The notes beneath the pieces were generated by a model. That model had not been told where the DNA came from. It made no database searches and saw only the letters and a program-made list of their open reading frames with translations. Source: a candidate division WOR-3 bacterium (lineage in GTDB: Bacteria > Hydrothermota > 32-111). From it: a DNA stretch of 64,000 nucleotides. The translations under genes and the position numbers were made by a program. The DNA lies in the NCBI GenBank assembly GCA_037481815.1, contig JBBFKX010000001.1, forward strand, positions 672,001 through 736,000, given 5' to 3'. This document shows, in pieces, positions 441 through 59,154 of this stretch (the stretch's first letter is position 1; each line of letters opens with the position of its first letter).

Positions 441-449
441 GGAGAAAAT

Positions 450-1700
450 ATGATTCCAAAAGAAATTTTCAAAAAAAGAAGGGAAAAAGTTTTAAAATCG
501 ATGGAAAAGAATTCGGTTCTTCTTTTAGATTCGGCGTCTTTTAAAGAAAAAAATCCTGAAAACAACTACATCTACAGGCAGAGTTCAAATTTCTTTTATC
601 TTACAGGTTACAAAGAACCTTCATCGACACTTTTGCTTTACAAAGGTGAAAAGGAAGAAAAAGAGATTCTCTTTGTCGAGGAGAACAATCCTTACTATGA
701 GGTCTGGACTGGGAAGAAAAAATCTGATAAAGAGGTAAAAGAGGAAACTGGAATTGAAAATGTTTTTTACAATAAAGATTTTTACTTCCATTTTGGGAAC
801 TATGTTAACAGAGGGGTAATATGTTATTTTGATTTTGCAAATGAAAGAGTTTCAGAATTTCTGGGATACAATCATTACAAAATTTCAAAACTCAGAGAAC
901 ATTTCCCCCAGATAAAATCTTTCTTACCAGCAAACAATCTGATATATCCCCTAAGGTCGATAAAAGATAAATATGAGATAGAATGTATAAAAAGGGCTAT
1001 AGAAATAACAAAACAGGGAATAATCAACTGTATGAAAAATGCACACGAAGGAATGTTCGAATATGAGATTCAGGCAGAACTTGAGTATATATTTTTGAAA
1101 AATGGTGTTTTTGTTCCCGCTTTCCCTTCAATAGTTGCTTCTGGAAAAAATGGTGCGACTTTACACTACACATCAAACAACCAGAAAGTAAAAAAAGATG
1201 ATCTCGTTCTTATAGATGTTGGGGCAGAATATGAACTCTATTCTGCTGATATAACAAGGGTTTTCCCACCAAAAAGAAAATTTTCGGAAAAGGAAAAAAG
1301 TTTGTATCAGCCATTACTTGAGATACAGGAAAAGATCATCGATTCGATAAAACCTGGTGTTAGTATGAAAGAGTTGAATGAAAAAACTAACGAACTGATC
1401 GGAAAACTGCTTGTAAAATTAAACTATATCAAAGATATTAAGGATGTAAAAAAATATTATCCGCATTCAATCGGACATATGCTGGGGCTTGATACTCATG
1501 ATGTTTCATCTGTTCCAAGATATATGCCTGAACTTCAAGAAAATATGGTTTTAACGATTGAACCCGGGATCTATATTCCTGAAGAAGGGATTGGACTCAG
1601 GATTGAAGATGATATACTCGTTACAAAAAATGGATACAAAAATCTTTCAATCGAAATTCCCAAAACGATAAAAGATATTGAAAAAGTTGTTGGAGTTTAA
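450..1700 (+). CDS. pepP: Xaa-Pro aminopeptidase (M24B)
   Basis: YRQSSNFFYLTG N-domain; LHY, DVGAE..YSADITR, HSIGHMLGLDTHD, TIEPGIY, RIEDD metal ligands; AGGAG RBS. Confidence 0.93.
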   Translation: MIPKEIFKKRREKVLKSMEKNSVLLLDSASFKEKNPENNYIYRQSSNFFYLTGYKEPSSTLLLYKGEKEEKEILFVEENNPYYEVWTGKKKSDKEVKEETGIENVFYNKDFYFHFGNYVNRGVICYFDFANERVSEFLGYNHYKISKLREHFPQIKSFLPANNLIYPLRSIKDKYEIECIKRAIEITKQGIINCMKNAHEGMFEYEIQAELEYIFLKNGVFVPAFPSIVASGKNGATLHYTSNNQKVKKDDLVLIDVGAEYELYSADITRVFPPKRKFSEKEKSLYQPLLEIQEKIIDSIKPGVSMKELNEKTNELIGKLLVKLNYIKDIKDVKKYYPHSIGHMLGLDTHDVSSVPRYMPELQENMVLTIEPGIYIPEEGIGLRIEDDILVTKNGYKNLSIEIPKTIKDIEKVVGV

Positions 1701-17387: not shown

Positions 17388-18406
17388 TTTAACCTTAAAT
17401 TTCCATCGTTATCAATTTCAATCAAATTCTTTTTAAAATCTGATTCGGTCAAACTTTTCATCAGTTTTACAACCTCATAATCTTTATCGAATATAACTCC
17501 TTTAAACTTTTCCTGTTTAAAAGGATATATTTTACCTGAAACAAAATTTCCAAGTGTATCGAGTTCAACATATAAAATAGGTGCTAATCCATTTATCCCC
17601 GAAATGTTGATTCCAGAAAATGTCATAAAATTACCAAGAGAGTAAGCGATAAGTTTTCCTCTGTAAAGTTCAAGTGCCCTCACAACGTGTGGACCATGGC
17701 CTATCACAAGATCAGCACCAGCATCTATAACCGTATGTGCAAACCTGTATATGTTCCCTCTATATTCACCATACATATATTCTACTGTATCCTTTATGTG
17801 TAGAGCATTTTTCCCTTCCTGTCCACCATGAAAAGTAACTATGACTATATCGTACAATTTTGAAAGTGAATCGATTAGATTATAACTTTTCTTTAAATCT
17901 GTAAGATCGTTCATAAGAGAGTAGTTCGAAAAACCAACAACACAAATTTTTTTATTGTTTATATCAAAAAATCCAAAGTCGTTTAAAAAGCCAGTATACT
18001 GTATCAAGTTTTCAGAAAGAACCTTTTTTGTTCTTGAAACTGAGATATCACCAAAATCTCTTATATGATTGTTCGCTATATTCAAAACATTGAATCCAGC
18101 ATATTTTAATGTTTTAACATATTTTTCTGGTGTTCTGAAAGCATAACTTTTTCCCTCAACAACATTTTTTCTTAAACTTCCAGAATCAGATAGCGCGGAT
18201 TCAAGATTCCCGATCCTGATATCACCTTTTTTTATTATAGATTCAGCTTCCTGAAAAAGATAGAACCCATCACCTTCTGGAACAGAAGGCGATGGATAAA
18301 CTGTTCCAACCATTATGTCACCAACAGCAGTTATCTTTATCGTTTCACTCTTTAAAAGAGAAATGAAAAAAAACATGAAATATAAAATAATGTTAAATTT
18401 TTTCAA
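17384..18406 (-). CDS. CapA-family metallophosphoesterase (exported)
   Basis: AVGDIM, GNLE, ANNHIRDFG, TFHGG, IGHGPHV, YSLGNF. Confidence 0.9.
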   Translation of the reverse strand: MKKFNIILYFMFFFISLLKSETIKITAVGDIMVGTVYPSPSVPEGDGFYLFQEAESIIKKGDIRIGNLESALSDSGSLRKNVVEGKSYAFRTPEKYVKTLKYAGFNVLNIANNHIRDFGDISVSRTKKVLSENLIQYTGFLNDFGFFDINNKKICVVGFSNYSLMNDLTDLKKSYNLIDSLSKLYDIVIVTFHGGQEGKNALHIKDTVEYMYGEYRGNIYRFAHTVIDAGADLVIGHGPHVVRALELYRGKLIAYSLGNFMTFSGINISGINGLAPILYVELDTLGNFVSGKIYPFKQEKFKGVIFDKDYEVVKLMKSLTESDFKKNLIEIDNDGNLRLK

Positions 18407-18887
18407 ATCTAACTCCTTTTTGATCTATCAATGCATAAGTTTTTTCTTTTGAAAGAAAAAGTGAAAACGCTCCGGGATTCACAACAACCTTTCCGTTTTC
18501 AACTCTTGATTCAATTTTATGGGTATGACCATAAAAAATATATTTCGGATGCTCTTTTTGAATGTAATCCTCCAAAAAGAATGGTTCATGCATCAAAATT
18601 ATATATTCAAACGGTTCCAAAAAAATTTCAAAAGGAGATGTTGAGAATGATATCGATAGATCCCTTAAAATTTTTGATGTTACAAGATCCAATCTATCAT
18701 TGTTGCCCTTTACAAGATAAAACTCATCCGATAGTTCTCTTATGATCGAAAGGTTGTAAAAATCAACAACATCACCAAGATGAATCGTTGCTAAAAATCT
18801 TTCTTTTTCATATCTTTTTTTTAAAAATTTGAAGGATCCAGTATCGTTATGAGTATCAGATATCAAAAGAATTCTTTTATCTTCCAT
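18393..18887 (-). CDS. YfcE/MJ0936-type metallophosphoesterase
   Basis: ISDTH, HLGD, KGNND, YGHTH, NPGA. Confidence 0.88.
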   Translation of the reverse strand: MEDKRILLISDTHNDTGSFKFLKKRYEKERFLATIHLGDVVDFYNLSIIRELSDEFYLVKGNNDRLDLVTSKILRDLSISFSTSPFEIFLEPFEYIILMHEPFFLEDYIQKEHPKYIFYGHTHKIESRVENGKVVVNPGAFSLFLSKEKTYALIDQKGVRFEKI

Positions 18888-41786: not shown

Positions 41787-44700
41787 ATGAAAAAACTTTT
41801 CACATTTACATTGCTCCTTCTCTTTGTGGCTGTAGCAGTTTTTGCTGTTCCAGCAAGACCTGGTTTCAGGGTCTTTGAGCAACCGGATGGAACAAAGTTT
41901 ATTGCTCAATTAAAGGGAGATGAGCATTTCCATTTTGCTGAAACTGAGGATAGGTATGCTATCATCAGAAACAGTGAGGGATGGTGGACTTATGCCAACA
42001 AAGTTGATGGAATTTTGGTTCCTTCGCTTTTCATAGTTGGAAAGGATAATCCACCATTTCCAAAAGGTTTAAGACCTGACCCGGATAAGGTTGCTGCTCT
42101 TCCAGGAAACGAGTTCAAAATGATAAACTGGACAAAACTTTTCAATATCAACGATGAGGCAGCAACAAAAGCGGGTTACACAGACAGAAAATTTTTGGTC
42201 ATACTTGGATGCTTTGATGATTCATCATTTTTAGGTACAGTAAAACCAGCAACAAGATGGGATATCAACTCCTGGACATTAAGGTCTGGTTTTACTTCAG
42301 GAAGATATGGTGGAACCGCACATGATTCGTTATACTGGGATTCAGTATTCTTTTCAAACTCTCCAGGTTCCTTTAAAACATTTTTTAAAGAGATCTCTTT
42401 TGGAAGATGGCTTATCGATACTGCATGCCATGTTCAGGGACCAGTTTCATCAGGTAAAACTTATGGAGCATACGGCGATGGTGCAGAGTTGACATACATG
42501 CAAGACATTATTTACAGAAGTTCAGGAAGGATGAAAACAACACCACACAGAGCAGATCAGAATGCATATTCTGACTACGATGGTGATGGCGATGGTTATG
42601 TTGATCACTGGATTGTTGTTCGTGCTGGTGGTGAACAGTCAGCAACAGGATCTTTAAAAGACATGTGGGCAACAAAATATACAACAACTGTTTCAACAAC
42701 TACTGGTGCAACAGTTAGAAACCCGACCAACGCTGGAGAGTTAACCGATTCTTTAGCAAATACATGGACTTTAACACAACTTCTTGATACACAATTTGTC
42801 AGATCATACACGATGGGTATAGGTGTTCATGCTCATGAGTCATTCCATGCTTTCAGTGCACCTGATCTTTATGATTATGGTTATGAAGGTGAACCAGCAG
42901 ATGTATGGAGTTTGATGGATGGAGGATCATGGACAGGTGATGGAATACAATCAGGCTCAAGGCCACCACATCCAGGTGCAATGCTTCAGTACTCATTCAG
43001 AGGTTATCCTGAAAGTGGTGATACAACGGCAGGATTTATGCCTGATGATTGGGATCAGTTGATAACAACAAATGGAAGATATTTTGTGGTTGGTCTTGCT
43101 GCTGATTCTTCAAAAGGTGGTCCAAGATTCATCATGGCAAGAAACGCTGCAATGACAACAGCAGGAGAATATTTCTTTATTGAAAATAGATGTAATAAAG
43201 GATTCTTTGAATCATGCTTACCTGAGCATGGTTTGATTATCGTTCATTATGACCAGTCAGAAAAGGGAACATATTATAATGATGGTCCTGACTATTATAC
43301 ATACTGGGTAGAACAGAGGGGCTTTGATCCACAATTACATGTAACTTATCCAAATGATACAATCTATAGAGATGCAGGTCAGGCACCATATTTTGCTGGT
43401 GATGATTATGAATTCACAAACCTCACAAAAGCAGGTGCAAATGTTAACGGGTCAACAACTAACTTTGGCCCATACATAATATCAATTTCAGCACCTGGCG
43501 ATACGATGTGGTTTACAATCGATAACGCAACAGTTCCAGCCACAGCATCATTTGCTTATAAATCACATACAGTTTATGATACTTTAACAAATTATTCAAA
43601 TAACAATGGTACTGTTGATCCAGATGAAGTTGTTGATCTTGTGATTGCAGTGAAAAATGTTGGTGGAAACGCATCGAGTGTTGCTGCTAAGTTAAGACAT
43701 AAATATGGTCTTGTAACTGTTCTTGATTCAACTGCAAACTATGGAACGATCAACTCACTTGCAACAGTTTCAAACACTGGTGATGTATTCAGAATCAAAG
43801 TAAAACCAGGTTGTCCAACAGATACAATACTCTTCTTCACACTTTACTTTACATCTTCAAACGGTTCAAACGAAGCAGAGTTTGGTATAAAACTTAATTC
43901 AACACCTCTTGTTTATACAACAACATTAAGAACCTCTGTATCGAGTTCTCTGACTGATGCTGCAGGAATTGATCTTATGTACTTCCCAGACATTAACGAC
44001 TGGCTATTTATGGCTGCTGGAACTGGACTTGGAAACTTTATGGGCACAGGTGCTAAAAAGATGTTTATACTTGATCTTTCAACATGGGGAACAGTTATAA
44101 AAGATTCATTCGTGTATGCTGGTGCAAACTACCTTATGTGTATGGATCATGATGCACAGGGAAGAATCTGGTATTCTTCTGGTGACTCAGCATACTGCTA
44201 TGACATTTCATCAGGTTCACCTGTTAATGTTGGAAGATTAAGATGGCCAAACTCTGATTATGCTGGAACAGTAATGAAAAGAGTCAGAGGAATAACATTT
44301 GATAACAACGACTCACTCTACGGTTACTGGCAGACATATGGAACATTTGAAGAATCAATCTATGGAGTTAGAAAGACACTTGGAACTTTATCGACAATAT
44401 GGGATAGAGCAGCACTTCTTGATGGAACAAGTTATGGTGGAAAGTGGAACAACGGTAGAGGTATTGAATGGGATGGAACATGTCTCTGGTCAGTCAACAT
44501 ATTTGAGAATTTGATATTTAGAAAATATCCAATAAACAATCCTTCAGTTCCTTCAAACCTTGAATTCAAGACAATCAACACAATCTCCTGTCCTTCAGTT
44601 GTTGGAAGTTATCCTGCTTATGATATTGCATTACAGGCAGTTTCTTCTGACGGAGTTACACCTGCTGTTCCTTATGCTTTTGGAAACAAATATTATATGT

Positions 44701-45602
44701 GGACTATGAATATGGACAACTCAGAAGTTACAAAAATAGATGTAACCGCACTTGTTCTCCCACAGCAGGTTGATCTTGTTACTTCTGCTTGCACATTCAA
44801 CGATGCTAAAGATAGTGTGACGCTTGTTTGGAAGAAGAACCCATTGAATGACTTTGTTACAAAATACATTGTCTACAGATCACAGGATGCAAACTTCTAT
44901 GCTACTTCAAAAGATTCTGTGTTAACAACAACAGACACAACCGCAAAATTTGTCATACCAAACACAAAAGGTCTCCATTACTTCAAAGTCAGAGCGGTTA
45001 ACTATCAGGGTTACTCATTCAACACATCTGATGAGGTTTATGTTGTTAACAACACAACAACAGCACTCAACACTGTTTCACTTGTTGCAACACAAAAAGG
45101 TACAGATGTTTACCTTGAATGGGAGAAAGAAGGTATAAACAGTGGTTCAGCATGGGAAGTTTCAAGAGCGAAAGATAATGGGCAGTTTGAGGTTGTTGGT
45201 TCTGTTGATTTCAAATCAACAAAATTTGTTGATAACAAGATCTCTGAAAACGGAACCTACACATACAAACTTGACCTTGTAAAACTCGGTGGTGAAAAGG
45301 TAACATATGGACAGGCCTCAATTAAATTCTTCAATCCTTATGTGTTCAAACTCTATCAACTTGACAAGAATCCAGTCAAAGGTAGTTTCAATATAAACTA
45401 CTCAATCGATAGAGAGGACTATGTTACTTTGAAAGTGTACTCAGTTACAGGTCAGGTTGTTGCCACACTTGCAAACGGAGTTATGACTCCAGGTAGATAC
45501 ACAGCAAAAGTTGATGAAAAGAAACTTTCAGCAGGTATCTACTATGTTGTTCTAACTCAGGGAACAAAGAAAGATAATATCAAGGTTACAGTTTTAAAGT
45601 AA
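41787..45602 (+). CDS. Secreted M6-family (immune inhibitor A-like) metalloprotease with C-terminal T9SS type-A-like domain
   Basis: Signal peptide + AVPA..QPDG..GDEH propeptide; DYDGDGDGYVD; HESFH..APDLYD; WSLM.GGSW; EYFFIENR; C-terminal VYSVTGQVV..LSAGIYYV..K; AGGAGG RBS. Confidence 0.92.
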   Translation: MKKLFTFTLLLLFVAVAVFAVPARPGFRVFEQPDGTKFIAQLKGDEHFHFAETEDRYAIIRNSEGWWTYANKVDGILVPSLFIVGKDNPPFPKGLRPDPDKVAALPGNEFKMINWTKLFNINDEAATKAGYTDRKFLVILGCFDDSSFLGTVKPATRWDINSWTLRSGFTSGRYGGTAHDSLYWDSVFFSNSPGSFKTFFKEISFGRWLIDTACHVQGPVSSGKTYGAYGDGAELTYMQDIIYRSSGRMKTTPHRADQNAYSDYDGDGDGYVDHWIVVRAGGEQSATGSLKDMWATKYTTTVSTTTGATVRNPTNAGELTDSLANTWTLTQLLDTQFVRSYTMGIGVHAHESFHAFSAPDLYDYGYEGEPADVWSLMDGGSWTGDGIQSGSRPPHPGAMLQYSFRGYPESGDTTAGFMPDDWDQLITTNGRYFVVGLAADSSKGGPRFIMARNAAMTTAGEYFFIENRCNKGFFESCLPEHGLIIVHYDQSEKGTYYNDGPDYYTYWVEQRGFDPQLHVTYPNDTIYRDAGQAPYFAGDDYEFTNLTKAGANVNGSTTNFGPYIISISAPGDTMWFTIDNATVPATASFAYKSHTVYDTLTNYSNNNGTVDPDEVVDLVIAVKNVGGNASSVAAKLRHKYGLVTVLDSTANYGTINSLATVSNTGDVFRIKVKPGCPTDTILFFTLYFTSSNGSNEAEFGIKLNSTPLVYTTTLRTSVSSSLTDAAGIDLMYFPDINDWLFMAAGTGLGNFMGTGAKKMFILDLSTWGTVIKDSFVYAGANYLMCMDHDAQGRIWYSSGDSAYCYDISSGSPVNVGRLRWPNSDYAGTVMKRVRGITFDNNDSLYGYWQTYGTFEESIYGVRKTLGTLSTIWDRAALLDGTSYGGKWNNGRGIEWDGTCLWSVNIFENLIFRKYPINNPSVPSNLEFKTINTISCPSVVGSYPAYDIALQAVSSDGVTPAVPYAFGNKYYMWTMNMDNSEVTKIDVTALVLPQQVDLVTSACTFNDAKDSVTLVWKKNPLNDFVTKYIVYRSQDANFYATSKDSVLTTTDTTAKFVIPNTKGLHYFKVRAVNYQGYSFNTSDEVYVVNNTTTALNTVSLVATQKGTDVYLEWEKEGINSGSAWEVSRAKDNGQFEVVGSVDFKSTKFVDNKISENGTYTYKLDLVKLGGEKVTYGQASIKFFNPYVFKLYQLDKNPVKGSFNINYSIDREDYVTLKVYSVTGQVVATLANGVMTPGRYTAKVDEKKLSAGIYYVVLTQGTKKDNIKVTVLK

Positions 45603-45641: not shown

Positions 45642-46781
45642 TTATTTATAAACTTTTTCAAGAATCTCTTTTGAAATTTTTTCCCAGGTAAAATTCGAAG
45701 AAAAATTTCTCAAGTATTCCCTATCCCATCTGTATTCAACCGCTTCAACAAGTTTTTTTACAAATTCTTGCTTATCCCTTTTTTCAACGATAAAACCTGT
45801 TTTATAATCCTTAACAACTTCTCTTACACCACCGACATCAAATGAAACAACAGGAACACCAGAAGAAAACGACTCAAAAAGTATCGTCGGGAACCCTTCT
45901 GATCTACTTGTTATCAAGGTCAAAAATGCTTTTCTATATATATCTTTCATTCTAATTCTTTCAACAAAACCCTGAAAACCAACATAATCGTTTATTTTAT
46001 ATTCATCGATTCTTTTTAAAACCTGCTCCTTCAATGGCCCATCTCCAACGATTATCAATTTAAAATCTTTTCTTATTTTTAAAAACTCATTAAAAATATC
46101 TATCAACAATAGAGGATCTTTTACCTCTGTTAACCTCCCAACAAAAAGAAGATTTTTTGACTCATCTGTAGATTCGAATATCTCTTTTATGCCGTTTCTG
46201 ATAACAATTGAGTTTTCGATTTTAAAATCATTTTTAAGAATCCTTTGCATTTTTTCACTAACAACTATAACCTTTTTTGATTTTTTAAGATAATAGTTTA
46301 CCAGGAACTTATCAAACGGTCTTCTGTTTATAAACATGAGATCAGACCCATGTATAGTGACAACAAAAGGGATTTTTTTTAACCTTGAAAGGATATACCC
46401 GGAAAATCCATCTGGGAAAAGTGTATGGGAATGGATAATATCAAATCGCTCGTCTTTTGTTTTTAAATAAAGTAGAAAAGAAATTAAAAAGGAGTCAAAA
46501 TGTTTAGAAAATACTTTTGGATATTTTAAAAATTTAAAATCATTTTTATCTTGTTTTATTTTGAACTTTTCTAATATTTTTTCCCTTTTACTGGTAAAAA
46601 AAATCAAAAATATTTCTTTTATTGAAGGGTTTATTCTAACTGGAACAAAAACTTTTAAATCGCATACTTTCTTCAGTTCTTCTACTTGTTCATAAATATA
46701 TATCCCTGTTGAAGGTGTTAACCGTTGGGGTGAATCTGGCCAGAGATGGGAGATCAAAAGGACTTTTTTATCCTTTCTCAT
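45642..46781 (-). CDS. Glycosyltransferase family 4 (TuaC-like)
   Basis: IIHSH..FPDG, TIHGSD, FVGRL..K, SEGFPTILFE, VGGVREV. Confidence 0.9.
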   Translation of the reverse strand: MRKDKKVLLISHLWPDSPQRLTPSTGIYIYEQVEELKKVCDLKVFVPVRINPSIKEIFLIFFTSKREKILEKFKIKQDKNDFKFLKYPKVFSKHFDSFLISFLLYLKTKDERFDIIHSHTLFPDGFSGYILSRLKKIPFVVTIHGSDLMFINRRPFDKFLVNYYLKKSKKVIVVSEKMQRILKNDFKIENSIVIRNGIKEIFESTDESKNLLFVGRLTEVKDPLLLIDIFNEFLKIRKDFKLIIVGDGPLKEQVLKRIDEYKINDYVGFQGFVERIRMKDIYRKAFLTLITSRSEGFPTILFESFSSGVPVVSFDVGGVREVVKDYKTGFIVEKRDKQEFVKKLVEAVEYRWDREYLRNFSSNFTWEKISKEILEKVYK

Positions 46782-47862
46782 ACTCTATAAGTTTTATTTT
46801 CAGATCTTTATCTATATTTTTTTGTTCGATATCCCTTTCATCCTTGACTATGAATTGTTGAAATTTATCGATTGTTTTTATATGAACCAATTTCCTTTCT
46901 CCATCAAAAACACCAAATATGTTATGTTTTTCAGGTGAAGGGAAAGGTCCATCAACACCACCAGTTTCAAAATAGATTTCAAAAACTTTTTTCCTCTCTT
47001 TAAAAAAACCTTTTTCAACAAACTCCCTTTTTAATTTTCCATCAATATTTTCTGGAACTTTTATTCCAACAGAATCGAGGAGTAAGGGTAGAAAATCTAC
47101 AGTTGAATGGAGAGAGTTTTCTTCTTCCTTTTTGTTTTCTCCATATTTTATTACAAAATTATGTAAGGTATAATTGTAAAGAAAAACTCCATAAGCCCTT
47201 TCACCAAAAATCTCACCTGTTGATGCACCATGATCTGAAAGAATCCAAATATTGCTATTTTCATTCAATTTTTTTTCTTTTAACAGAGAAAGGATTTTTT
47301 TTAAATACTCTCCAGAAATTCTTATATCATTTTTGTATCTTTCTCTATTTTTTTCAAGATTGTTGAAATATTCTTCGGATCTATCATTATAAACATTTAA
47401 AACATTGTTAACAAGTGATGTATGTATTTTTGAATAGTGTAGATATAGAAAAAATGGTTTATATTCTTTCATTTTCTCAGCGTTTTCTTGGACAAACTCT
47501 ATATGTTTTTTTTCAACATCCTGATTGTATTCATCGTGTAGAGTATAAACATCAAAACCTCTATTAGCCATAACAACTGGACTTGGAATGTTCGCAAAAG
47601 TTGAATAACCATTTTCTTTCAAATACTGTGGTATTATCTTAACATTCTGTTTTAGATCGTTAGGTCTGAAATATCCATTAACACCATTATTTTTCGGATA
47701 AAGCCCCGTAAAAATCGTATGCATTGAACCGATTGTATATGGTGATGCTGTATAGAACCTGTTGTACCAGATCGATTTTGAAAACAGTTCCTGATACATA
47801 AAATCTTCTTTTACAAAATCGTACCTTGCTCCATCTATCACTATTAAAATTATGTTCTTCAT
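46768..47862 (-). CDS. Sulfatase/alkaline-phosphatase-superfamily hydrolase or transferase (Thr nucleophile)
   Basis: IVIDGARYD, SPYTIGSMHTIFTG, FLYLH..H, SDHG; no signal peptide. Confidence 0.8.
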   Translation of the reverse strand: MKNIILIVIDGARYDFVKEDFMYQELFSKSIWYNRFYTASPYTIGSMHTIFTGLYPKNNGVNGYFRPNDLKQNVKIIPQYLKENGYSTFANIPSPVVMANRGFDVYTLHDEYNQDVEKKHIEFVQENAEKMKEYKPFFLYLHYSKIHTSLVNNVLNVYNDRSEEYFNNLEKNRERYKNDIRISGEYLKKILSLLKEKKLNENSNIWILSDHGASTGEIFGERAYGVFLYNYTLHNFVIKYGENKKEEENSLHSTVDFLPLLLDSVGIKVPENIDGKLKREFVEKGFFKERKKVFEIYFETGGVDGPFPSPEKHNIFGVFDGERKLVHIKTIDKFQQFIVKDERDIEQKNIDKDLKIKLIEYEKG

Positions 47863-48610: not shown

Positions 48611-50110
48611 TTACTCCCTATCTTTCAGATAACCTAATCTTCTCAATTCCTCTTTTACAAATTCATCATCAACTTTTACTTCCTCTTTTTTCCTTTTTAC
48701 CAGAAAATCGTAAGAATCTATCATTGTTGTTTCAGAGAATTTATAGAGAGGTTTTCCATCAAAATCTTTTGCCAATGGCAGGTTTAAAAAAGAAAGAAGT
48801 GATGGAAGAAAATCGTATATTGTTGAGTTTCCAATATTCCCCTTAAATTTCAGACCTTTATCATAAATCATAAAAATCCCTGTCTTGTCATGATCAGCAG
48901 ATCTTTCAATATCGTTAACATCAACAAGGGAAAGAAAATCAAAATAATCCGTTCCAATAAGAACTTTAAGGTTTGAAAGATCCTCCTCTTTAAACTTACC
49001 TTTGTCAAACTGAGTAACCTTTAAAAAAATTCTTCCACTCTCATCTTTTTCAACAACTTCAAAAAATCTTTCTCCTGAGGGTTTAATTATTATGTTTTTA
49101 AAGAAACCGATAAGATTTTCTGGATCCAATCCACTATTCTCTTTTACAACGATAACAGAGTTTAACCCGACAAAATAGATTTCAACTTTTCCAAGAATAT
49201 TTGTTTTTTCAAGAAAACTTTTCTGTTTTAGAGACAATGTTTTAAAACTCCCCTCTCTTATAGGTTTCATTCCGTGATCCGAGATTATGAAAAGAGATGA
49301 ATTTTTATTGTTTTCATATATTGTTCGTAAACTGTTGTCTATCTCTATGTATGCCTTTAAAAGAAAATCTCCATATTTTTTTCTTTCTTCATCAGAAACT
49401 TCGGGGAAATTTTCTCTGTCCGAATATTTCCAGAAATAGTGTGCTGCAGAATCTGACAAAGGAATGAAGAAAAACGATACATCGGTTTTAAAATTTTTTA
49501 CAAGATTCAAAAAAAGTGATAGATTTATCCTGTTCAAAAAAATTAATCTTTTAAAAAGTTTTAATTTTTTATCGTAAAATTTTTCAACCAACATATTAGA
49601 TGAAAGTTGTGTCAATGTTAAAAAATCCACTCCGATTTTTTTTAACTTAAAAAACAAGAATATATTTTTTAAAAGATTTCCTTTTTTCTTTCCTCTGAGT
49701 TCCATTATCGGAGAAAGATATGAAGGGAAAGTCCTGTTATCCCTAGCCATCGAGCATGGTATAGTGAACCCACCATAATTTTCAGGTGGCCAGGTCAACT
49801 CCCATCCAAAAGTTCCAACAGAGTATCCATAATGGTTCAAGATTTCAAACCATCTTGCTGAAACTATATCCTGCTGTAGATTAAAAAATGATAAAATTTT
49901 ATGTTTTTCTGCTTTTTTTCCAGTTGCTAGCGATGTCCATATTGTTGGTGAGATTGGAACCCTTGTATCCTGCTCAACAGAATCCATATAAGAGTATATC
50001 GAGTTTTCCTTCAAAAACTTAAAAAATGGCAGTTTACCCTCTTCTATAAATCTATCTATCAGAGTGAATGTCCCACCATCTATTCCAACAATAATAACTT
50101 TTTTCTTCAT
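48611..50110 (-). CDS. Alkaline-phosphatase-superfamily (nucleotide pyrophosphatase-like) protein
   Basis: GIDGGT, PISPTIWTSLATG, D..AHYFW, SDHG, ADH, terminal LRRLGYL. Confidence 0.85.
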   Translation of the reverse strand: MKKKVIIVGIDGGTFTLIDRFIEEGKLPFFKFLKENSIYSYMDSVEQDTRVPISPTIWTSLATGKKAEKHKILSFFNLQQDIVSARWFEILNHYGYSVGTFGWELTWPPENYGGFTIPCSMARDNRTFPSYLSPIMELRGKKKGNLLKNIFLFFKLKKIGVDFLTLTQLSSNMLVEKFYDKKLKLFKRLIFLNRINLSLFLNLVKNFKTDVSFFFIPLSDSAAHYFWKYSDRENFPEVSDEERKKYGDFLLKAYIEIDNSLRTIYENNKNSSLFIISDHGMKPIREGSFKTLSLKQKSFLEKTNILGKVEIYFVGLNSVIVVKENSGLDPENLIGFFKNIIIKPSGERFFEVVEKDESGRIFLKVTQFDKGKFKEEDLSNLKVLIGTDYFDFLSLVDVNDIERSADHDKTGIFMIYDKGLKFKGNIGNSTIYDFLPSLLSFLNLPLAKDFDGKPLYKFSETTMIDSYDFLVKRKKEEVKVDDEFVKEELRRLGYLKDRE

Positions 50111-50258
50111 AATTTTACATTATACAAACATAGAAATTTTATTCAAGTTAAATTTAGAAAAATAAAAAATACTTAAAAGTTTTCATTTTTTATATAAATA
50201 ATTATTGACACAATTTGAATATTAAAATATTATTTAAAAAATAAAATCAAAAGGGATT

Positions 50259-50879
50259 ATGATCTATAGGAAGTTAAAAGAGGTTGCTAAAGAAATATAT
50301 GTTGGACTAAATGTAAAAAATTATCTTGATAAAACCGAGATTGCACAAAACGATTCAGAAAAAAAGATTACACTTTATATCCCCATTATAAATATTTCCA
50401 ACATAACAGAGGATGGATTCTTTGTAGGGGATTTTAAAAGATTAAAAATCGTTTCCCAAAGAGAGATATTAAAGTATACTGTAAAGGAAAAAGACGTGAT
50501 TTTTAACTCCCGCGGTACAGCTTTAAAAGTTGCAATAGTCGATGAAGAACGGGCAGGTTACATCATAACATCAAATATGATCGCTGTCAGTTTGCTTGAT
50601 GAATTTATCACTCCCGAAATTTTCGAATTTTATTTAAGAAGTGAAAAGGGTTTTTATGAATTGATGAAATTATCTTTTTCTTCAAAAAATTCTATCAGAT
50701 TAACTAAGGAAAGTGTTGAAGAACTCAAAGTACCAATCTTAAAACCTAAGGAGTTAGTCAGTTTATCTGGATTGTTGAACGACTATAAAATAATTAAAAG
50801 CATAGCAAAAAATATATCAGCTGATCTTGATAAAATGTCATATTATATTATGAAAATTTTAAATAAAGATGAAAAATAA
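50259..50879 (+). CDS. hsdS: Half-size type I R-M specificity subunit (single TRD)
   Basis: KLKEVA.I..G, IPIINISNI, YTVKEKDVIF..RGT..KVAIV, P.IFEFYLRS, LTKESVEELKVPI then a helix; preceded by TTGACA-17-TATTAT (50205-50233). Confidence 0.72.
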   Translation: MIYRKLKEVAKEIYVGLNVKNYLDKTEIAQNDSEKKITLYIPIINISNITEDGFFVGDFKRLKIVSQREILKYTVKEKDVIFNSRGTALKVAIVDEERAGYIITSNMIAVSLLDEFITPEIFEFYLRSEKGFYELMKLSFSSKNSIRLTKESVEELKVPILKPKELVSLSGLLNDYKIIKSIAKNISADLDKMSYYIMKILNKDEK

Positions 50880-52335
50880 AAGTTTTGATAATCAAAAATT
50901 GAAAATAGAATGCCTTAAAAAATATAGAAAAATACTTAGTAAGGTTAATAAATCAAGATTTTCGTTTTTGGGGAATTTAGGTTCAGATTTTTTAAAACTC
51001 TTATTCATAAAATATATTTACTTGAATGAAGAAAATATCAAAAAATTTATCATTTTAGATGAGGGGCTTTCATGGAAAAACCTTTCTGAGATAAAAGAAG
51101 ACGTAGGAATATTTATTGATAAGATTTTCGAAAATTTAGCTAAAAATAATGAAAATTTATCAGTTTTTTCCTTTCTCGAAAATTTTTCTGAGCAAAAACA
51201 TCGAAGAGTTCCTTTTGACAAAAGATTTTCATTAAAATCAAGAGAAAAAATTTTAATCGATTTCATTGAGGAGTTAAACAAAGATTCATTTTTAAATCAA
51301 AAAAATACATTTAACTTATTTGTTAAAGAGATAATCACCCATCAACAGCATTTTTACTATAGAATAAATGGATTAAAATATAGAGAAAATACTAATGAAG
51401 TATTGAATTATTTAAATAGATATATCGAACAAAAAATAAAAAACAAAGAAGATCTATCTTTTTACATCCCCTATTTTAAAAGAAGTGAGTTCTATTTTGA
51501 TATAATACTAAAAGTTGCTACCCAAAAAAGTACTTTAAAAATTTACTGCAACGAATTTTGGGGGGAAGCACCTGCTTTGACAATGTTGAAACTTTTTTTG
51601 AATGGAATTTACAATGTTGAAATCAGAGCAAAGAAAGAACCATGGTTTGTTGATTTTTTTAAAGATGAAAAAGAAGATTTAAAAAAATATGACCTTGTTT
51701 TTGTTGATATGATTGATGAAAAATATGATATAGATGAAGAACAATATCGAAAGTTAAAAGAAAAAATTGAAACGGATTTAAAACTCTACTTAGATTCAAA
51801 AAATATAATATATTCTTTTCTTCTTGATAGTTTAAATGAAAAAGGGGTTCTTATTCTGCTCACCAACTACAATTTTCTAACCGTTTCTGGAAGTAAAAAG
51901 GAAGTGAGAAAATTTTTAGTTGAAAACAATTATCTTGATGAGGTTATATCGATATATGGGTTTTTAAAATCGCCTGTCGGGTATGATCCCGTTATAGTTC
52001 TTGTTGATAAAAACAGAGAGAAAAACAGAAAGGTAACATTTGTTGATCTTGAAAGAGTGGTTACTAAGTTGTCACAGAAAAATAAAAGTGAAGAAAAAAA
52101 TATTTTGAATGAGAATCTTGATATATTAAAAGATATAGAGTACGCAATGGTTCAAAAAAAGAATGAAGATATAAAAGAGAATGATTACAACTTTAATGTA
52201 TTCAAATATCTTTCTTATCTGCCTCAAGATTACAATGAAGCATTAGAGGAAATTGCTAAAAGGTTAAATGGAACAACAGAAGAATTTCAAAAAAGATTGA
52301 ATGAATTTTTGATAAAAATAAAAAAATTGAAATAA
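50869..52335 (+). CDS. HsdM-like protein with degenerate SAM-binding and catalytic motifs (pseudo-methyltransferase)
   Basis: HsdM scaffold recognisable (LLFIKY..W..L..IDKIFENL; CNE..L..LFLNGI; L..KGVL..FL..G..KEVRKFLVENNYLDEVI; IKENDYNFNV.KY), but motif I reads YIPYFKRSEF and motif IV reads VFVDMID; ORF uninterrupted. Confidence 0.72.
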   Translation: MKNKSFDNQKLKIECLKKYRKILSKVNKSRFSFLGNLGSDFLKLLFIKYIYLNEENIKKFIILDEGLSWKNLSEIKEDVGIFIDKIFENLAKNNENLSVFSFLENFSEQKHRRVPFDKRFSLKSREKILIDFIEELNKDSFLNQKNTFNLFVKEIITHQQHFYYRINGLKYRENTNEVLNYLNRYIEQKIKNKEDLSFYIPYFKRSEFYFDIILKVATQKSTLKIYCNEFWGEAPALTMLKLFLNGIYNVEIRAKKEPWFVDFFKDEKEDLKKYDLVFVDMIDEKYDIDEEQYRKLKEKIETDLKLYLDSKNIIYSFLLDSLNEKGVLILLTNYNFLTVSGSKKEVRKFLVENNYLDEVISIYGFLKSPVGYDPVIVLVDKNREKNRKVTFVDLERVVTKLSQKNKSEEKNILNENLDILKDIEYAMVQKKNEDIKENDYNFNVFKYLSYLPQDYNEALEEIAKRLNGTTEEFQKRLNEFLIKIKKLK

Positions 52336-52488
52336 ATAAAAGACCAGTACATCCTTCACATTTTAAGATAAAATAAAAGATAAAAAACTGAATGTATCTA
52401 TTTTAATCTATAAAGTTTATTTTTACCGAAATTAGTTAGGTATATATTAAATTATAAAACATTCTTTTAGAATATTTTAATATTCATA

Positions 52489-52516
52489 TTGACTTTTTTG
52501 TATTTTATGATATAAT
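52489..52516 (+). promoter_or_regulatory. sigma70 promoter of the MoxR operon
   Basis: TTGACT-16-TATAAT with extended TG. Confidence 0.72.
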
Positions 52517-52582
52517 ATTATCGGTTGGAGAAACTACAAACAGCAGTTCTAAACAAAAACGGAAACAAAAAGGGGGGTTATA

Positions 52583-53983
52583 ATGGAAACGTGTGTTAAG
52601 ATGGCTGACTACTTTTCAGGTTTTCTTGAAGAACTTGGAATTTTTGGTTACACGAATCTGGAACTACCAATAATAATTACTTTAGCAACACAAGATCCAA
52701 TACTTTTCGTTGGAACACATGGAACCGCTAAAACGATTCTCTGTAAAAGAATTGCTGAAACACTTTCTTTAAAATATCATTGTTACGATGCTTCAAAAGT
52801 CCTATTTGAAGATATTTTGGGATTTCCAAATCCAAATTCACTCAGAGAGGGGAAAATTGAGTATATAAGTACTCCGATTTCAATATGGGATAAAGAATTT
52901 ATTCTTATCGATGAAATCTCAAGAGCAAATTTTCAAACTCAAAGTAAATGGCTTGAAATTATTAGATCAAAAAAAATCATGGGTTTGGAAATTAAAAATC
53001 TAAAATACATTTTCGCTGCTATGAATCCCCAAAATTATGTTGGTACATTTGAAATCGACAAAGCACTTTTAGGAAGATTTTCGATGATCGTAGAAATACC
53101 CGATTTAAAATGTATGGATGATAATACCATAAAAAAAATTATAACTACCATACATTCAGATGATGCCAGAGGATTTATAAGAAACAGACCAGAATTTAAA
53201 AGCTCAAATTTTAAAAAGAATTTAGAAAATATAATAAACAAAATAAAAAATGATTTTTATAATAAAAAATATTTTGACATCTCAATAAATTTTGTTCAGA
53301 TTTTAATCAAATTGCTATTAGAAGAAAATATTGAAATAGATGGAAGACGTGCTGGAATGATATTTAGAAATGTTCATAGCGCAATATCTATTTATGACAA
53401 CGATTTTAAAGATAAACAGTTTAAAAATATCTTGAGCTGGATCTCTTTATATACAATCCCTTCGTTTGATAAAAAAGAAAAAGAAAAAATAAAAATTTGC
53501 ATTAAAAAGAGCACAGATATTTTAATCGATAAAAAAAATAAATATTACTTTTTCATCAAAAAAAATATCTTCTCTACATTAAATGAGTTTGCTTCTAATT
53601 ACAATAACCTTCAAAATGAAGAAAAAGAGGAGTTCTTTCTAAAACTTCTTGAATATTATCAGGAGTTAAAAAACGAAAAAGATATTGAAAAAATTCTTGA
53701 AATTTATCAGATCTCTTTTTTCCTTGAAAATTTTGTTGAAAACGAGCTAACCAATGGTAACGAGAAAATAGTGGAAATGTTTCAAATGGTTCAAAAACCT
53801 TTTTTATTTCCTAATCAAAAAAATTTTTTCAAAATACTTATTGTATTGAACCAGAAAGAGAAGTATAAAATCAATTACTTTATTGTTACTATATTAAGTA
53901 ATCTTGATCTCCAAAACGATAACGATATTATTGAACTTTATTATATTTCATTAAAATCTATGGAGGTAAACCATGCTCGTTAA
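52583..53983 (+). CDS. MoxR-family AAA+ ATPase with C-terminal helical extension
   Basis: Walker A GTHGTAKT, Walker B ILIDEISRA, sensor-1 AAMNP, R-finger DKALLGRF, sensor-2 DGRR. Confidence 0.88.
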   Translation: METCVKMADYFSGFLEELGIFGYTNLELPIIITLATQDPILFVGTHGTAKTILCKRIAETLSLKYHCYDASKVLFEDILGFPNPNSLREGKIEYISTPISIWDKEFILIDEISRANFQTQSKWLEIIRSKKIMGLEIKNLKYIFAAMNPQNYVGTFEIDKALLGRFSMIVEIPDLKCMDDNTIKKIITTIHSDDARGFIRNRPEFKSSNFKKNLENIINKIKNDFYNKKYFDISINFVQILIKLLLEENIEIDGRRAGMIFRNVHSAISIYDNDFKDKQFKNILSWISLYTIPSFDKKEKEKIKICIKKSTDILIDKKNKYYFFIKKNIFSTLNEFASNYNNLQNEEKEEFFLKLLEYYQELKNEKDIEKILEIYQISFFLENFVENELTNGNEKIVEMFQMVQKPFLFPNQKNFFKILIVLNQKEKYKINYFIVTILSNLDLQNDNDIIELYYISLKSMEVNHAR

Positions 53984-55007
53984 CGGATTCAAATTGTTAT
54001 TCGATTTTAAAGAACATAAAACAAGTTTTTATGAGCGAATAAATGTTGAGTACCCTTTTGTTGAATGCTACAATAATCTCGAAAAGTTTCTTTTTGAAGA
54101 AAAAAACGAAATCTTTAAACCTTTTAAATTGAACCTATCGGATGGATCCATAAAATACGGAATTTTATCTTATTCTTCCATATCAGGTTTAAAAAATTTT
54201 TTAAAATCACAAAATAGTATTTACTCCATCGAAAACAAATCATTAATTTTAAGTCAGATCGAAAACGAATCATATCACATGAAAAAATCTTATCGTTTTA
54301 CAAGGGACAAATTCAAACTAGTAAACCATGGAATGTTACACAAAAAATTTTTTATGAACTACAAAGATGATATCTTTTTTTTAAAAAAGGAATCAATAGA
54401 CCCTTACAATTTTTATGACGACTCAGATTTTAATATAACATTTTCGTATAGTTTAACTGAAAAGGATTATAAAGATTTGAGGTTGAGATTGTTCAGAACT
54501 TTGTTTCTAATTCCTCCACAGAAAAATGAAAAACCAACAAAAACCTTTTGTTATAACTTTAAGAATTTTTTTTCAGTTAACAATGCCACTGAACTTCCTG
54601 AAGAAATACAGGAAGAATTTGAGAAATATGGTTTTCTCGGAAAGCCAAATTTTATCGAAAACTATTTTAACATGATAAATATAAAAATTAAGTACATCGT
54701 CAAAATTCCTGAAAAAGAAGAATTTAATAGATTACATCAGAATAAAAAAATAATAAAACCTAAACTTGAAAAAAATTTTTATTTTGTATTTTTTGATCCA
54801 TTCCCACAATATATTGAAGAAAAACTCGATAACACAAAACCAATAACGGATGTTGAACAAGCGTATTCGATCCTTATACATTCAGATTCAGGATATTATT
54901 TTAACTCAGAGAAAGATCCTTCTTTTAATCTCTTTTATGAAAAATTAGGGAAAAATAGTAAATATATATGTCTGGGAGAAGCCATACAGTTTCCAAAAAA
55001 GATTTAA
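53973..55007 (+). CDS. Hypothetical protein in the MoxR operon
   Basis: 344 aa, GGAGG RBS, overlaps the MoxR stop; no motif recognised. Confidence 0.75.
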   Translation: MLVNGFKLLFDFKEHKTSFYERINVEYPFVECYNNLEKFLFEEKNEIFKPFKLNLSDGSIKYGILSYSSISGLKNFLKSQNSIYSIENKSLILSQIENESYHMKKSYRFTRDKFKLVNHGMLHKKFFMNYKDDIFFLKKESIDPYNFYDDSDFNITFSYSLTEKDYKDLRLRLFRTLFLIPPQKNEKPTKTFCYNFKNFFSVNNATELPEEIQEEFEKYGFLGKPNFIENYFNMINIKIKYIVKIPEKEEFNRLHQNKKIIKPKLEKNFYFVFFDPFPQYIEEKLDNTKPITDVEQAYSILIHSDSGYYFNSEKDPSFNLFYEKLGKNSKYICLGEAIQFPKKI

Positions 55008-55016
55008 AGAGGTTTT

Positions 55017-56303
55017 ATGTCGAACAAAAATATCAAAAAAATATTCTCTGACATTTTAAATAAAAACTTTGAGCAATTTTCAAGTAAAATCACCTTTCTA
55101 TTTTCTAATGAAACTCCAACTGCCTGTGTAAAAAGAAATCAAAATAATTTTTTATTGGTGGTCAATAAGAATTTTATAGAAAAATACAATTTAAATTTAT
55201 TTGATATCGAATTTGTCTTACACCATGAACTCTCACATTTAAAATTCGGTGATCTCAATAAAATTTTTTCTACAAACCTTACCGAAAAAGAAAGAGTTGT
55301 TGTGAATATTGTTCTTGATATAACCATCAACTCGTTGTTAATCAAAAATCTCCCTTTTACAAAATATCTTACAATATTTGAAAAACTATACAATTTATCA
55401 AGTTTCCCCTCTTTTTTGCTTTATCCACCATCACTTTATGATTTTCACAAAAAAAAGGAAAGTTTAAAAAAATTGTTATTGGTAAAAGGTACAGATGAGT
55501 TTAATGCTGAATTTCTTCTTGATCTATACATAAAAATGTGGGATTTAAAAATTTCAGAAACTGAGGCATTTTACAGTTTAAAAGATTTTCTTGAAATTTT
55601 TGAAGATAATAATCCGATCTTTTTGGGTTCCCATGAAAAAAAAGGTTATTCAAACAGACCTCTTGATAAAATAATAAATCTGAGATTAGAAAAATCTGAT
55701 TGGAGAGATGGAAATAAAAACATCTATGAATTTTTGAAATTTATAAACAGTATGTTATCAGAAGGTGAAAATTTCGCTTCCAAAATAATCGAACAGAATA
55801 TTTTTTATAATGTGATCGATCATATCTCAAGAAAAGATATACTTTTCAATTTTTATAATGTTGAAAAATTACTCTACGAAAATAAAATTTTCAACGAAGA
55901 TTTTATAAAAAAAGACCTTTCAATTTATATCGATGTTTCCGGTTCATTTTTGAAAACCTATCCATTTATTGTTAAACTGATTTCACAGTTAAAAAATTTT
56001 TATTTTATAGAAATTTTTCAGTTCAGTTCAACGGTTGAAAAAATTAATTTTGATGACTTTTTAAAAGGAATTGTTGTAACAAACAATATGACCAGTATCA
56101 ATGCTGTTTTGAAGCATATAATTGATAACAATTACAAAAATGCACTTATCATAAGTGATGGTTTAATATCTAATCCTTCATATGACCTTATTTTTAAAAT
56201 AAAAGAAAAAAATATTAAAATATTCTCTATCATTACAAGGAAACATTCAGAAAATAAAATTAAACAATTTTCTTATAAATACTTTTTTCTTAAAATAAAC
56301 TAA
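55017..56303 (+). CDS. HExxH metallopeptidase + vWA protein (DUF2201-like architecture)
   Basis: PTACV, FVLHHELSH, NIVLDITIN; MIDAS IDVSGS..T..ISDG. Confidence 0.85.
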   Translation: MSNKNIKKIFSDILNKNFEQFSSKITFLFSNETPTACVKRNQNNFLLVVNKNFIEKYNLNLFDIEFVLHHELSHLKFGDLNKIFSTNLTEKERVVVNIVLDITINSLLIKNLPFTKYLTIFEKLYNLSSFPSFLLYPPSLYDFHKKKESLKKLLLVKGTDEFNAEFLLDLYIKMWDLKISETEAFYSLKDFLEIFEDNNPIFLGSHEKKGYSNRPLDKIINLRLEKSDWRDGNKNIYEFLKFINSMLSEGENFASKIIEQNIFYNVIDHISRKDILFNFYNVEKLLYENKIFNEDFIKKDLSIYIDVSGSFLKTYPFIVKLISQLKNFYFIEIFQFSSTVEKINFDDFLKGIVVTNNMTSINAVLKHIIDNNYKNALIISDGLISNPSYDLIFKIKEKNIKIFSIITRKHSENKIKQFSYKYFFLKIN

Positions 56304-56314
56304 AAGGAGGAGAA

Positions 56315-56764
56315 ATGAATAAAGAAGTTTCAAAATTTTCAGATGATAAAAATTTTTCAGTTACTATTGACTTAAAAGATGTATTTAAGGAACATAGGGT
56401 AAAAGTAAAGAAAAAGAAAATAAACTATGGAGGAAACATTAAATTTGGATTTAACTCATGTCAATATAAATTTTATAAAGATACATTTAAAGAAACAATT
56501 TTAAGAGCGATAGAGGGAGTTTTAACACACGAACCAGTTGATGAGAAAGAAAATTTTTTACAGGGAATCTCAGATAAACTTGAAATAAGTGTTAAATACA
56601 ACAATTTTGATGACTCTTCTGAAATAAGAATCAAAAAAATTTCTCATTCTGCTTTGATTACACTTGCATATTACCTTTTAAGGGTGATAAAAGTTTTTGA
56701 ATGTGAGGTTAAGAGTGATAGGGACCAAGGATATGGTCTTGTTGCTGTTGATGAAGCGATTTAA
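56315..56764 (+). CDS. Hypothetical protein, last gene of the MoxR operon
   Basis: 149 aa, AGGAGG RBS, lysine-rich patch RVKVKKKK. Confidence 0.72.
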   Translation: MNKEVSKFSDDKNFSVTIDLKDVFKEHRVKVKKKKINYGGNIKFGFNSCQYKFYKDTFKETILRAIEGVLTHEPVDEKENFLQGISDKLEISVKYNNFDDSSEIRIKKISHSALITLAYYLLRVIKVFECEVKSDRDQGYGLVAVDEAI

Positions 56765-56779
56765 AAAATTTTTAAAAAA

Positions 56780-56853
56780 CGGGAGCGACGAGACTCGAAC
56801 TCGCGACCTCTTGCGTGACAGGCAAGCGTTCTAACCAACTGAACTACGCCCCC
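56780..56853 (-). tRNA. tRNA-Asp (GTC)
   Basis: Reverse complement gggggcgtagttcagttggttagaacgcttgcctgtcacgcaagaggtcgcgagttcgagtctcgtcgctcccg; promoter TTGACA-17-TATTAT at 56896-56868; CCA not encoded. Confidence 0.96.
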
Positions 56854-56899
56854 GTTTAAGGGATGTTATAATATCATAGAAATAAAATTTTGTCAATAT

Positions 56900-59154
<2,255 letters not shown>

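Follow-up and report, generated by a model that had tools for sequence, protein, structure and literature searches.

What can a type I DNA methyltransferase subunit be kept for when the motifs for S-adenosylmethionine (SAM) binding and catalysis have disappeared from it? This question is raised by a locus of a candidate division WOR-3 bacterium, located in a stretch of 64,000 nucleotides of contig JBBFKX010000001.1 (assembly GCA_037481815.1, positions 672,001 to 736,000), which is called the window here. At this locus, a short HsdS-like gene (S) overlaps a gene for an HsdM-fold protein of 488 amino acids (M*). The pair is no free-standing orphan and constitutes the first two genes of a conserved island, a context that is absent from the earlier sequence-only reading of this DNA. 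The genes for a MoxR-type ATPase, a 344-amino-acid protein (X) and a protein with peptidase-like and vWA-like parts, referred to together as the triad, follow in the island, and a gene for a 149-amino-acid protein (Y) is the last. The locus reads as a type I M/S core put to non-restriction use. The chances are judged to be about even that two S and two M* chains form a complex (S2M*2) which binds DNA without methylating it and controls the MoxR-peptidase/vWA module, probably a conflict system.

Lost motifs and retained fold of M*

The two proteins of the pair are encoded as follows.

50259 to 50879, plus strand: S, a half HsdS of 206 amino acids with one target recognition domain (TRD) and a C-terminal helix region (Pfam, PADLOC)
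50869 to 52335, plus strand: M*, an HsdM fold of 488 amino acids without the SAM-binding and catalytic motifs (alignment, model)

As seen in the alignment with canonical HsdM proteins, the column of motif X (GEFYTP) is occupied in M* by RE--NTNEV, and the column of motif I (DPxxGSGS; D/E-P-x-x-G-x-G) reads IPYFKRS, so the SAM-binding motif is missing. Motif III (GDTL) is read as lost, with KKEPWF in its place, and the column of the catalytic motif IV (NPPF/Y) reads DMID. The C-terminal NDYNxN..Y is retained, and N438, N441 and Y447 are invariant. Pfam N6_Mtase matches residues 217-449 (E 2.4e-11), HsdM_N has no match in the Pfam search, and the NCBIfam hsdM equivalog TIGR00497 reaches 36.1 bits over the C-terminal part only, below its cut-off of 242.75. 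The AlphaFold2 model (predicted local distance difference test, pLDDT, 82.8; predicted template modelling score 0.81) keeps the long C-terminal helix. When this model was compared with the PDB by Foldseek, the best match was PacII M (7vs4, E 2.8e-18), followed by 3lkd, 3khk, EcoR124I and EcoKI, and the HsdM alignments covered about 500 columns, the full length, at template modelling scores of 0.5-0.6. M* is a complete HsdM fold from which motifs X, I, III and IV are absent.

The S chain matches Pfam Methylase_S (E 3.7e-6, 27.7 bits, cut-off 22), indicating that a target recognition domain is present, and PADLOC Specificity_I (E 3e-14). Only a single stretch of its 206 amino acids is matched, so that two TRDs are not found in one chain. 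The closest solved relative of S is Esub1 of Streptococcus pyogenes (PDB 8vsq/8vsr, E 1.2e-5). In the whole genome of this organism (1.58 Mb, 95% complete), S is the sole Methylase_S match and M* the sole N6_Mtase match. No second hsdM was found there, and neither TIGR00348 nor PF04313 (HSDR_N), which were used for hsdR, has a match. The sequence-only reading had pictured a single-TRD HsdS overlapping by 11 nucleotides an HsdM without stops or frameshifts, with landmarks kept through the C-terminal NDYN.N..Y, with the FyTP region and motifs I and IV replaced, and with no HsdR. This picture is borne out: the open reading frames 50259-50879 and 50869-52335 have the overlap and are free of stops and frameshifts, the alignment adds the loss of motif III, the model is similar to HsdM structures along its entire length, and the absence of HsdR extends to the genome.

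Compared with the type I restriction-modification (R-M) core (HsdM2-HsdS, as in EcoKI, EcoR124I and PacII), the M fold, the Methylase_S TRD and the overlapping hsdS/hsdM genes are alike, as are the C-terminal NDYNxN..Y and the long C-terminal helix of M*. The differences are the loss of motifs X, I, III and IV, the presence of only one TRD, the missing HsdR, and the MoxR, X and peptidase/vWA neighbors.

The evolutionary history of the pair was followed in six genomes of its own genus, g1 (the genome of the window, G000, and G001-G005), and in the sister genus g5 (G009, G012, G013). Orthologues of M* occur in two of the five other g1 genomes, with 93% and 89% identity, all of 488 amino acids and without stops. 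Among these three genomes, the ratio of nonsynonymous to synonymous substitution (dN/dS, Nei-Gojobori) is 0.11-0.12 for M*, 0.06-0.14 for S and 0.10-0.23 for the four downstream island genes (0.06-0.23 over all six), and gyrB, taken as the comparison gene, has 0.01-0.04. Because the ratio of M* is 0.11-0.12, the pair is not decaying. Relatives with dead motifs were found in five lineages, in which motif IV of M* other than that of the window reads NIID/NVID, LPIL, AIFF or KIYT. These results support the earlier proposal of long selection for a role other than catalysis instead of recent decay. An exhaustive HMMER search with M* of 1.84 billion representative proteins gave three matches below 1e-10, namely its own cluster, a dead-motif g5 paralogue (P0006) and a canonical active methyltransferase (P0007). 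A second g5 paralogue came next (P0008, 3.6e-10), and the remaining matches inspected were all canonical active methyltransferases.

It is therefore a very improbable reading, although the fold is intact, that M* remains a methyltransferase through an unconventional pocket or that the pair is a decaying type I remnant. Part of motif I is kept in two distant relatives (L083 and L035, described below), which speaks for this reading; on the other side, four motifs are replaced in the M* of the window, and the dead form is conserved across genera. A remnant is contradicted by the dN/dS of about 0.11 and by the lack of stops in three species-level genomes.

The accessory island and its palindrome

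The island, its four further genes and the adjacent tRNA gene are given below.

About 50156 to 56764, no strand: accessory island of about 6.6 kb with six genes, between a housekeeping gene and tRNA-Asp (homology breaks against G001)
52583 to 53983, plus strand: MoxR-type AAA+ ATPase, 466 amino acids, with intact Walker A and Walker B (Pfam, alignment)
53973 to 55007, plus strand: X, 344 amino acids, constant middle gene of the MoxR-X-vWA triad (iterative hidden Markov model, HMM)
55017 to 56303, plus strand: peptidase/vWA protein, 428 amino acids, HExxH metallopeptidase-like in its N-terminal and vWA-like in its C-terminal part (alignment of 8 sequences)
56315 to 56764, plus strand: Y, 149 amino acids, confined to this genus (family searches)
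56779 to 56854, minus strand: tRNA-Asp (GTC), its 3' end abutting the island

The borders at about 50156 and 56764 are the points at which homology to the island-less genome G001 ends. The island is carried by three of the six g1 genomes (G000, G003, G002), and an empty site is found in two (G001, G004); in G001, this site has gyrB, tRNA-Asp and the upstream gene of 499 amino acids 216 bp apart. In G005, the same tRNA-Asp site (L017, C18:204900-206300) holds about 0.9 kb of unrelated DNA with short open reading frames only. The guanine-plus-cytosine (GC) content of the island is 0.25, compared to 0.30-0.38 in the flanks. No RNA data set was listed as containing the island, and 5-7% of its sampled words are present in three sludge-metagenome runs. 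Between G000 and G003, synonymous divergence (dS) is about 0.02 in the flanks (48611-50110, 56900-58858), whereas that of the island genes (50259-56764) is 0.21-0.59, and therefore the island alleles have a separate history. They are far older than the divergence of the backbone, or else they have been exchanged.

The following sites are located in the island.

50205 to 50233, plus strand: promoter-like site before S, TTGACA-17-TATTAT, assigned by consensus match only (11 of 12 positions), invariant in the three genomes
50217 to 50232, no strand: palindrome copy 1, GAATATTAAAATATTA, 1 mismatch, between the -35 and -10 elements of the promoter-like site of S
52470 to 52485, no strand: palindrome copy 2, GAATATTTTAATATTC, perfect, ending 3 nucleotides before the -35 element of the promoter-like site of MoxR
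52489 to 52516, plus strand: promoter-like site before MoxR, TTGACT-16-TATAAT with TG, invariant in the three genomes
56210 to 56225, no strand: palindrome copy 3, AAATATTAAAATATTC, 1 mismatch, about 90 nucleotides before Y, with promoter-like hexamers near

The palindrome comprises 16 bp, GAATATT-NN-AATATTC. With at most one mismatch it has five sites in the 1.58 Mb of the genome, three of which are within the island, which makes up 0.4% of the genome. When half-sites were permuted as controls, none of 139 palindromes had more than one match in the island. In the three orthologous islands, both intergenic regions, each with a strong promoter-like site, are nearly invariant and the palindrome sites are invariant. 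G000, G003, G002 and the g5 genome G009 have exactly one perfect copy in the whole genome, each time between M* and the next gene, and a one-mismatch copy occupies this place in G012. Additionally, g5 copies with at most two mismatches lie shortly before S in G012 and, in G009 and G013, where the peptidase/vWA gene has its 3' end. A perfect copy is missing from the three g1 genomes that lack the island, which have two to five one-mismatch sites each.

For a symmetric site, a binder that is itself symmetric is to be expected. S and M* are the only recognisable DNA-reading parts common to the g1 and g5 islands. Among the roles that the sequence-only reading had offered was a regulator of symmetric M*/half-S composition, and this option gains direct sequence support from a palindrome with three copies at promoter-like sites of the locus and hardly any in the rest of the genome. 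In the mechanism proposed, S would bind M*, and the two would assemble like a type I methyltransferase on a half-S homodimer. The resulting S2M*2 would still read DNA, with SAM binding and methylation lost. Its candidate target is the palindrome before S, before MoxR and before the last gene, which is presumably bound by this complex rather than by another protein. Binding at the S promoter would lead to autorepression, and the genes of MoxR, X and the peptidase/vWA protein, as the putative working part of the island, would be under the control of the complex. The direction of regulation, the action of the triad and the trigger are likewise suppositions of this model.

Three S lineages for which candidate sites exist were compared, and the other lineages accompany other symmetric sites. 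In L083, three sites of the type TAGYG-N7-CACTA are crowded into 107 bp of the divergent S/MoxR intergenic region, the remainder of the 8.2-kb locus having none, and TATACTTAAGTATA lies beside the -35 element of the copy-2 S gene of g5 in both g5 genomes. In the gap of 850 bp between M* and MoxR of L035, a GC-rich hairpin-type inverted repeat of 20 nucleotides, ATTCCTGC-N4-GCAGGAAT, was observed twice (3278-3297, 3414-3433).

The palindrome could also be the site of a different factor, such as Y, X or a host regulator, with S/M* in a structural role, for example as substrate or scaffold of a MoxR/vWA chaperone. Y and X are without known fold, and a g5 gene of Xre-like helix-turn-helix (HTH) type follows the peptidase/vWA gene (L012 about 18322-18885; L034 3499-4056), just downstream of one palindrome copy at a distance of about 120-180 nucleotides. 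Against such a factor, g5 lacks Y, and the HTH gene is without a homologue in the genome of the window and without similarity to Y, yet g5 and the genome of the window have the palindrome in common. Moreover, triads that lack S/M* (L031-L033) also lack the palindrome. This alternative is considered improbable.

Apart from the island, two other regions of the window drew attention. Upstream, at 45642-47862, two glycosyltransferase/sulfatase-like genes (364 and 379 amino acids; compared with L013 and L014) show a dS of 1.6-1.9 between G000 and G003 and of about 0.5 against G002, the reverse of the pattern in the flanks, and therefore represent a recombination tract in a surface-polysaccharide cluster. 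Upstream of this cluster, 41787-45602 encodes a secreted protein of 1271 amino acids, in which a peptidase-like N-terminal part and a sorting-type C-terminal tail can be read.

Recurrence of the pair and the triad

In g5, counterparts of the genes exist in the same order, with identities of 39% for S, 26-29% for M*, 38% for MoxR, 21-24% for X and 27% for the peptidase/vWA protein. In this genus only, the gene for a protein of 292 amino acids, in which a WapI-like immunity domain is recognised (E about 1e-20), stands between M* and MoxR (L012 13523-14401; L011 2682-3560). The same g5 contigs carry a second half-S/dead-M pair (L011 10903-15025, minus strand; L012 5528-10799, plus strand), 5-9 kb from the MoxR-linked pair; the genes downstream of it encode a TPR protein and a protein with an FGE-sulfatase domain (E about 1e-60). 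This second pair suggests that the S/M* cassette is modular.

The ATPase matches AAA_3 (E 1e-11, 45.3 bits, cut-off 27) and AAA_5 (31.7 bits, cut-off 22), and its bpMoxR score of 24.7 bits is under the cut-off of 27. The Walker A, Walker B and MNP...GRF motifs are conserved in the MoxR alignment. Two assignments were dropped: McrBC, proposed by the AAA_5 match, since the conserved MNP...GRF reads as MoxR-like, and MADS, since the mad8 match is weak (E 1.7e-4) and no other component matches. No match at 1e-10 was obtained for the MoxR protein by tblastn in the plasmid and phage collections, and MoxR of this subfamily (35-43% identity) was observed on three large viral contigs of 103-181 kb (L115, L116, L117). 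X has no match in Pfam, PADLOC, NCBIfam or PHROG. Its model (pLDDT 72.6) reached a best E of 0.4 in Foldseek against the PDB and a best Z of 2.8 in the wide VIA-align search, and the Atlas gave nothing usable for X. The middle genes of the triads are nevertheless one fast-evolving family, 29 of 31 being joined by an iterative profile HMM. In the peptidase/vWA protein, the HExxH residues H70, E71 and H74 are invariant in eight sequences, as are the MIDAS-like DVSGS 306-310, T355, T359 and D381; Pfam VWA has no match, and a homologue matches DUF2201_N, a putative metallopeptidase domain (E 4.8e-5). Nothing useful came from PHROG, in which the match of the peptidase region to a family carrying an HNH endonuclease label (E 1e-9) probably stems from the label. 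For Y, the Atlas scores are at most 0.90 with a poor Atlas model, and no family was assigned.

A scan with the MoxR alignment of one genome per species gave 80 loci in many phyla, of which 53 extend 2.5 kb or more upstream of MoxR. At 63 of the 80, a relative of the peptidase/vWA protein is encoded, mostly in the order MoxR-X-vWA. An S gene with a type I-derived partner stands beside the triad at only four of the 53: L035, L037, L083 and L060. L037 is a g5 contig. L035, from an uncultured bacterium, has an S of 196 amino acids and an M* of 371 amino acids with AIFF for NPPF, together with MoxR-X. L083, from a Desulfuromonas metagenome-assembled genome (MAG), has all five parts in a divergent arrangement, with an S of 211 amino acids and a partner of 465 amino acids that matches N6_Mtase (E 1e-27) and HsdM_N, yet reads KIYT at motif IV. 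The L083 island also encodes an apparently active N6_N4 DNA methylase (452-1312, minus strand, E 1.3e-45), and this gene and a further open reading frame (1-564, minus strand) look like a type II R-M system. In L060, from a Planctomycetia MAG, a protein with an HSDR_N_2 domain (E 1.5e-5) and an S with two TRDs precede the triad. Scans of metagenomes and viruses contributed another 83 MoxR loci, 39 of which reach 2.5 kb or more upstream. They yielded no additional M*, and one locus (L149) has an ordinary active HsdM (DPACGTG, NPPF) 3 kb away. The triad is thus a widespread module, to which the dead M/half-S pair is a rare addition that recurs in distant lineages.

The arrangement in L060 bears on another explanation, a methylation-free DNA-targeting defence in which S2M*2 would find its site on incoming DNA and recruit MoxR and the peptidase/vWA protein instead of HsdR. 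The gene order does mirror that of a type I system in which other genes have taken the place of R, and L060 supplies a protein with an HsdR N-terminal nuclease-like domain and a two-TRD S before the triad. Family searches, however, detected no nuclease domain in the island of the window. Without methylation there would be no self-protection, and the only perfect site of the genome sits in the island itself. Such a defence has a low probability in our view.

The context of the triad suggests a conflict or defence system. This is proposed because the island is accessory, because at 8 of 48 triad loci without S/M* a WYL/WCX regulator is found no more than two genes away, because PD-(D/E)XK nucleases, PIN, AbiEii, Macro, a type II methylase and a PIF1-WYL helicase are among the neighbors, and because a MoxR-vWA class has been published. 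WYL-domain regulators of the BrxR/CapW type are sensor-repressors of defence operons. At the 8 loci they take an equivalent slot beside the triad, and the role proposed for S/M* is the same; in fold and in the way DNA is read, they have no relation to S/M*. The published class consists of the MoxR-vWA "ternary" conflict systems (Kaur et al. 2020, eLife, PMC7159879). They have in common with the present triad a MoxR AAA+ ATPase, a vWA protein able to carry a peptidase, and a further component, and they differ in that the MoxR of the window falls below the bpMoxR cut-off and X is outside all named families.

Several points weigh against an S2M*2 switch of a conflict module. The palindrome was defined after inspection of the promoters and is almost all A/T in an island of 25% GC, a concern that the permuted controls answer only in part. 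Its arms are 2 nucleotides apart. Type I sites are composed of two short half-sites 6-8 nucleotides apart, and therefore the reading frame of the candidate site is uncertain. In G009, no copy with at most two mismatches is present before S, and in L035 no shared palindrome was detected. At about 160 kDa, the complex would be unusually big for a repressor, and selection acts on M* as a whole, the N-terminal domain included. This selection suggests a task of M* beyond holding S on DNA, and, together with the size, that the complex also senses something. As for the conflict role, MoxR/vWA pairs often mature metalloenzymes, and housekeeping genes are common among the neighbors of the triad. In PADLOC-DB v2, the ATPase has only the weak mad8 match (E 1.7e-4), and X, the peptidase/vWA protein and Y have none. 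A term search of PMC7159879 also gave no mention of methylase or HsdS.

Known type I-derived systems and the meaning of the locus

A sensor of DNA mimics is made plausible by a precedent. In its preprint (bioRxiv 10.1101/2023.04.06.535777), Ronin of E. coli is described as an hsdS-hsdM pair without hsdR, together with a small effector, that fires on Ocr, ArdA or Aop1. It still works with the NPPF-motif mutant F287G, so methyltransferase activity is dispensable, and most E. coli genomes bearing it have no type I system. The type I M/S pair without R, the dispensable methylation and the genome without type I restriction are shared with the locus studied here. As described there, Ronin has a canonical HsdM and a membrane effector of 61 amino acids, RonA, whereas the present locus has a naturally dead M and the MoxR/vWA triad.

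By analogy, S2M*2 might be a decoy that mimics a type I methyltransferase, an option already raised in the sequence-only reading, so that binding of Ocr/ArdA-type proteins to it would release or activate a triad effector at the protein level. The precedent of Ronin favors this, as do the likewise missing hsdR and second hsdM, an M* that is dead yet selected, and an accessory island. The promoter palindromes would be superfluous in such a model, contact between M*/S and the triad is only presumed in it, and the triad mostly occurs without S/M*. On balance, a decoy of this kind is regarded as unlikely. The two ideas may also be combined. S2M*2 on the three palindromes would then keep the triad genes off, and DNA-mimic anti-restriction proteins of phages, which bind type I M/S cores instead of DNA, would displace it and thereby switch the effector on. 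This combination, a decoy repressor drawn from the analogy with Ronin and the position of the palindromes, is held to be rather unlikely.

For the S2M*2 switch itself, the nearest parallel is Esub1, a half-S with one TRD and a dimerisation helix like S, which crystallised as a homodimer and for which a transcription-factor-like role was proposed by its authors (PMC11754733). According to the same source, Esub1 is encoded by itself at a great distance from any hsdM, and HsdM binding was not demonstrable; S overlaps a dedicated M*. In literature searches from which subscription journals were mostly excluded, neither a dead HsdM as a regulator nor a linkage of HsdM/HsdS with MoxR was found to be described.

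If phage DNA mimics were indeed the trigger, the locus would be a transcriptional anti-anti-restriction alarm made from a dead restriction enzyme, and its core would be a modular cassette attachable to different conflict systems, with which the g5 locus of S, M*, TPR and FGE-sulfatase genes fits. If the S2M*2 switch is correct, a type I methyltransferase core would have been retained for nothing but the programmable reading of symmetric DNA sites, and a regulatory or sensing use would join Ronin, the one use outside restriction known so far. The locus would also provide a first handle on the MoxR-X-peptidase/vWA triad of many phyla. Finally, DNA-binding modules could be designed from half-S/M* pairs whose TRDs are changeable.

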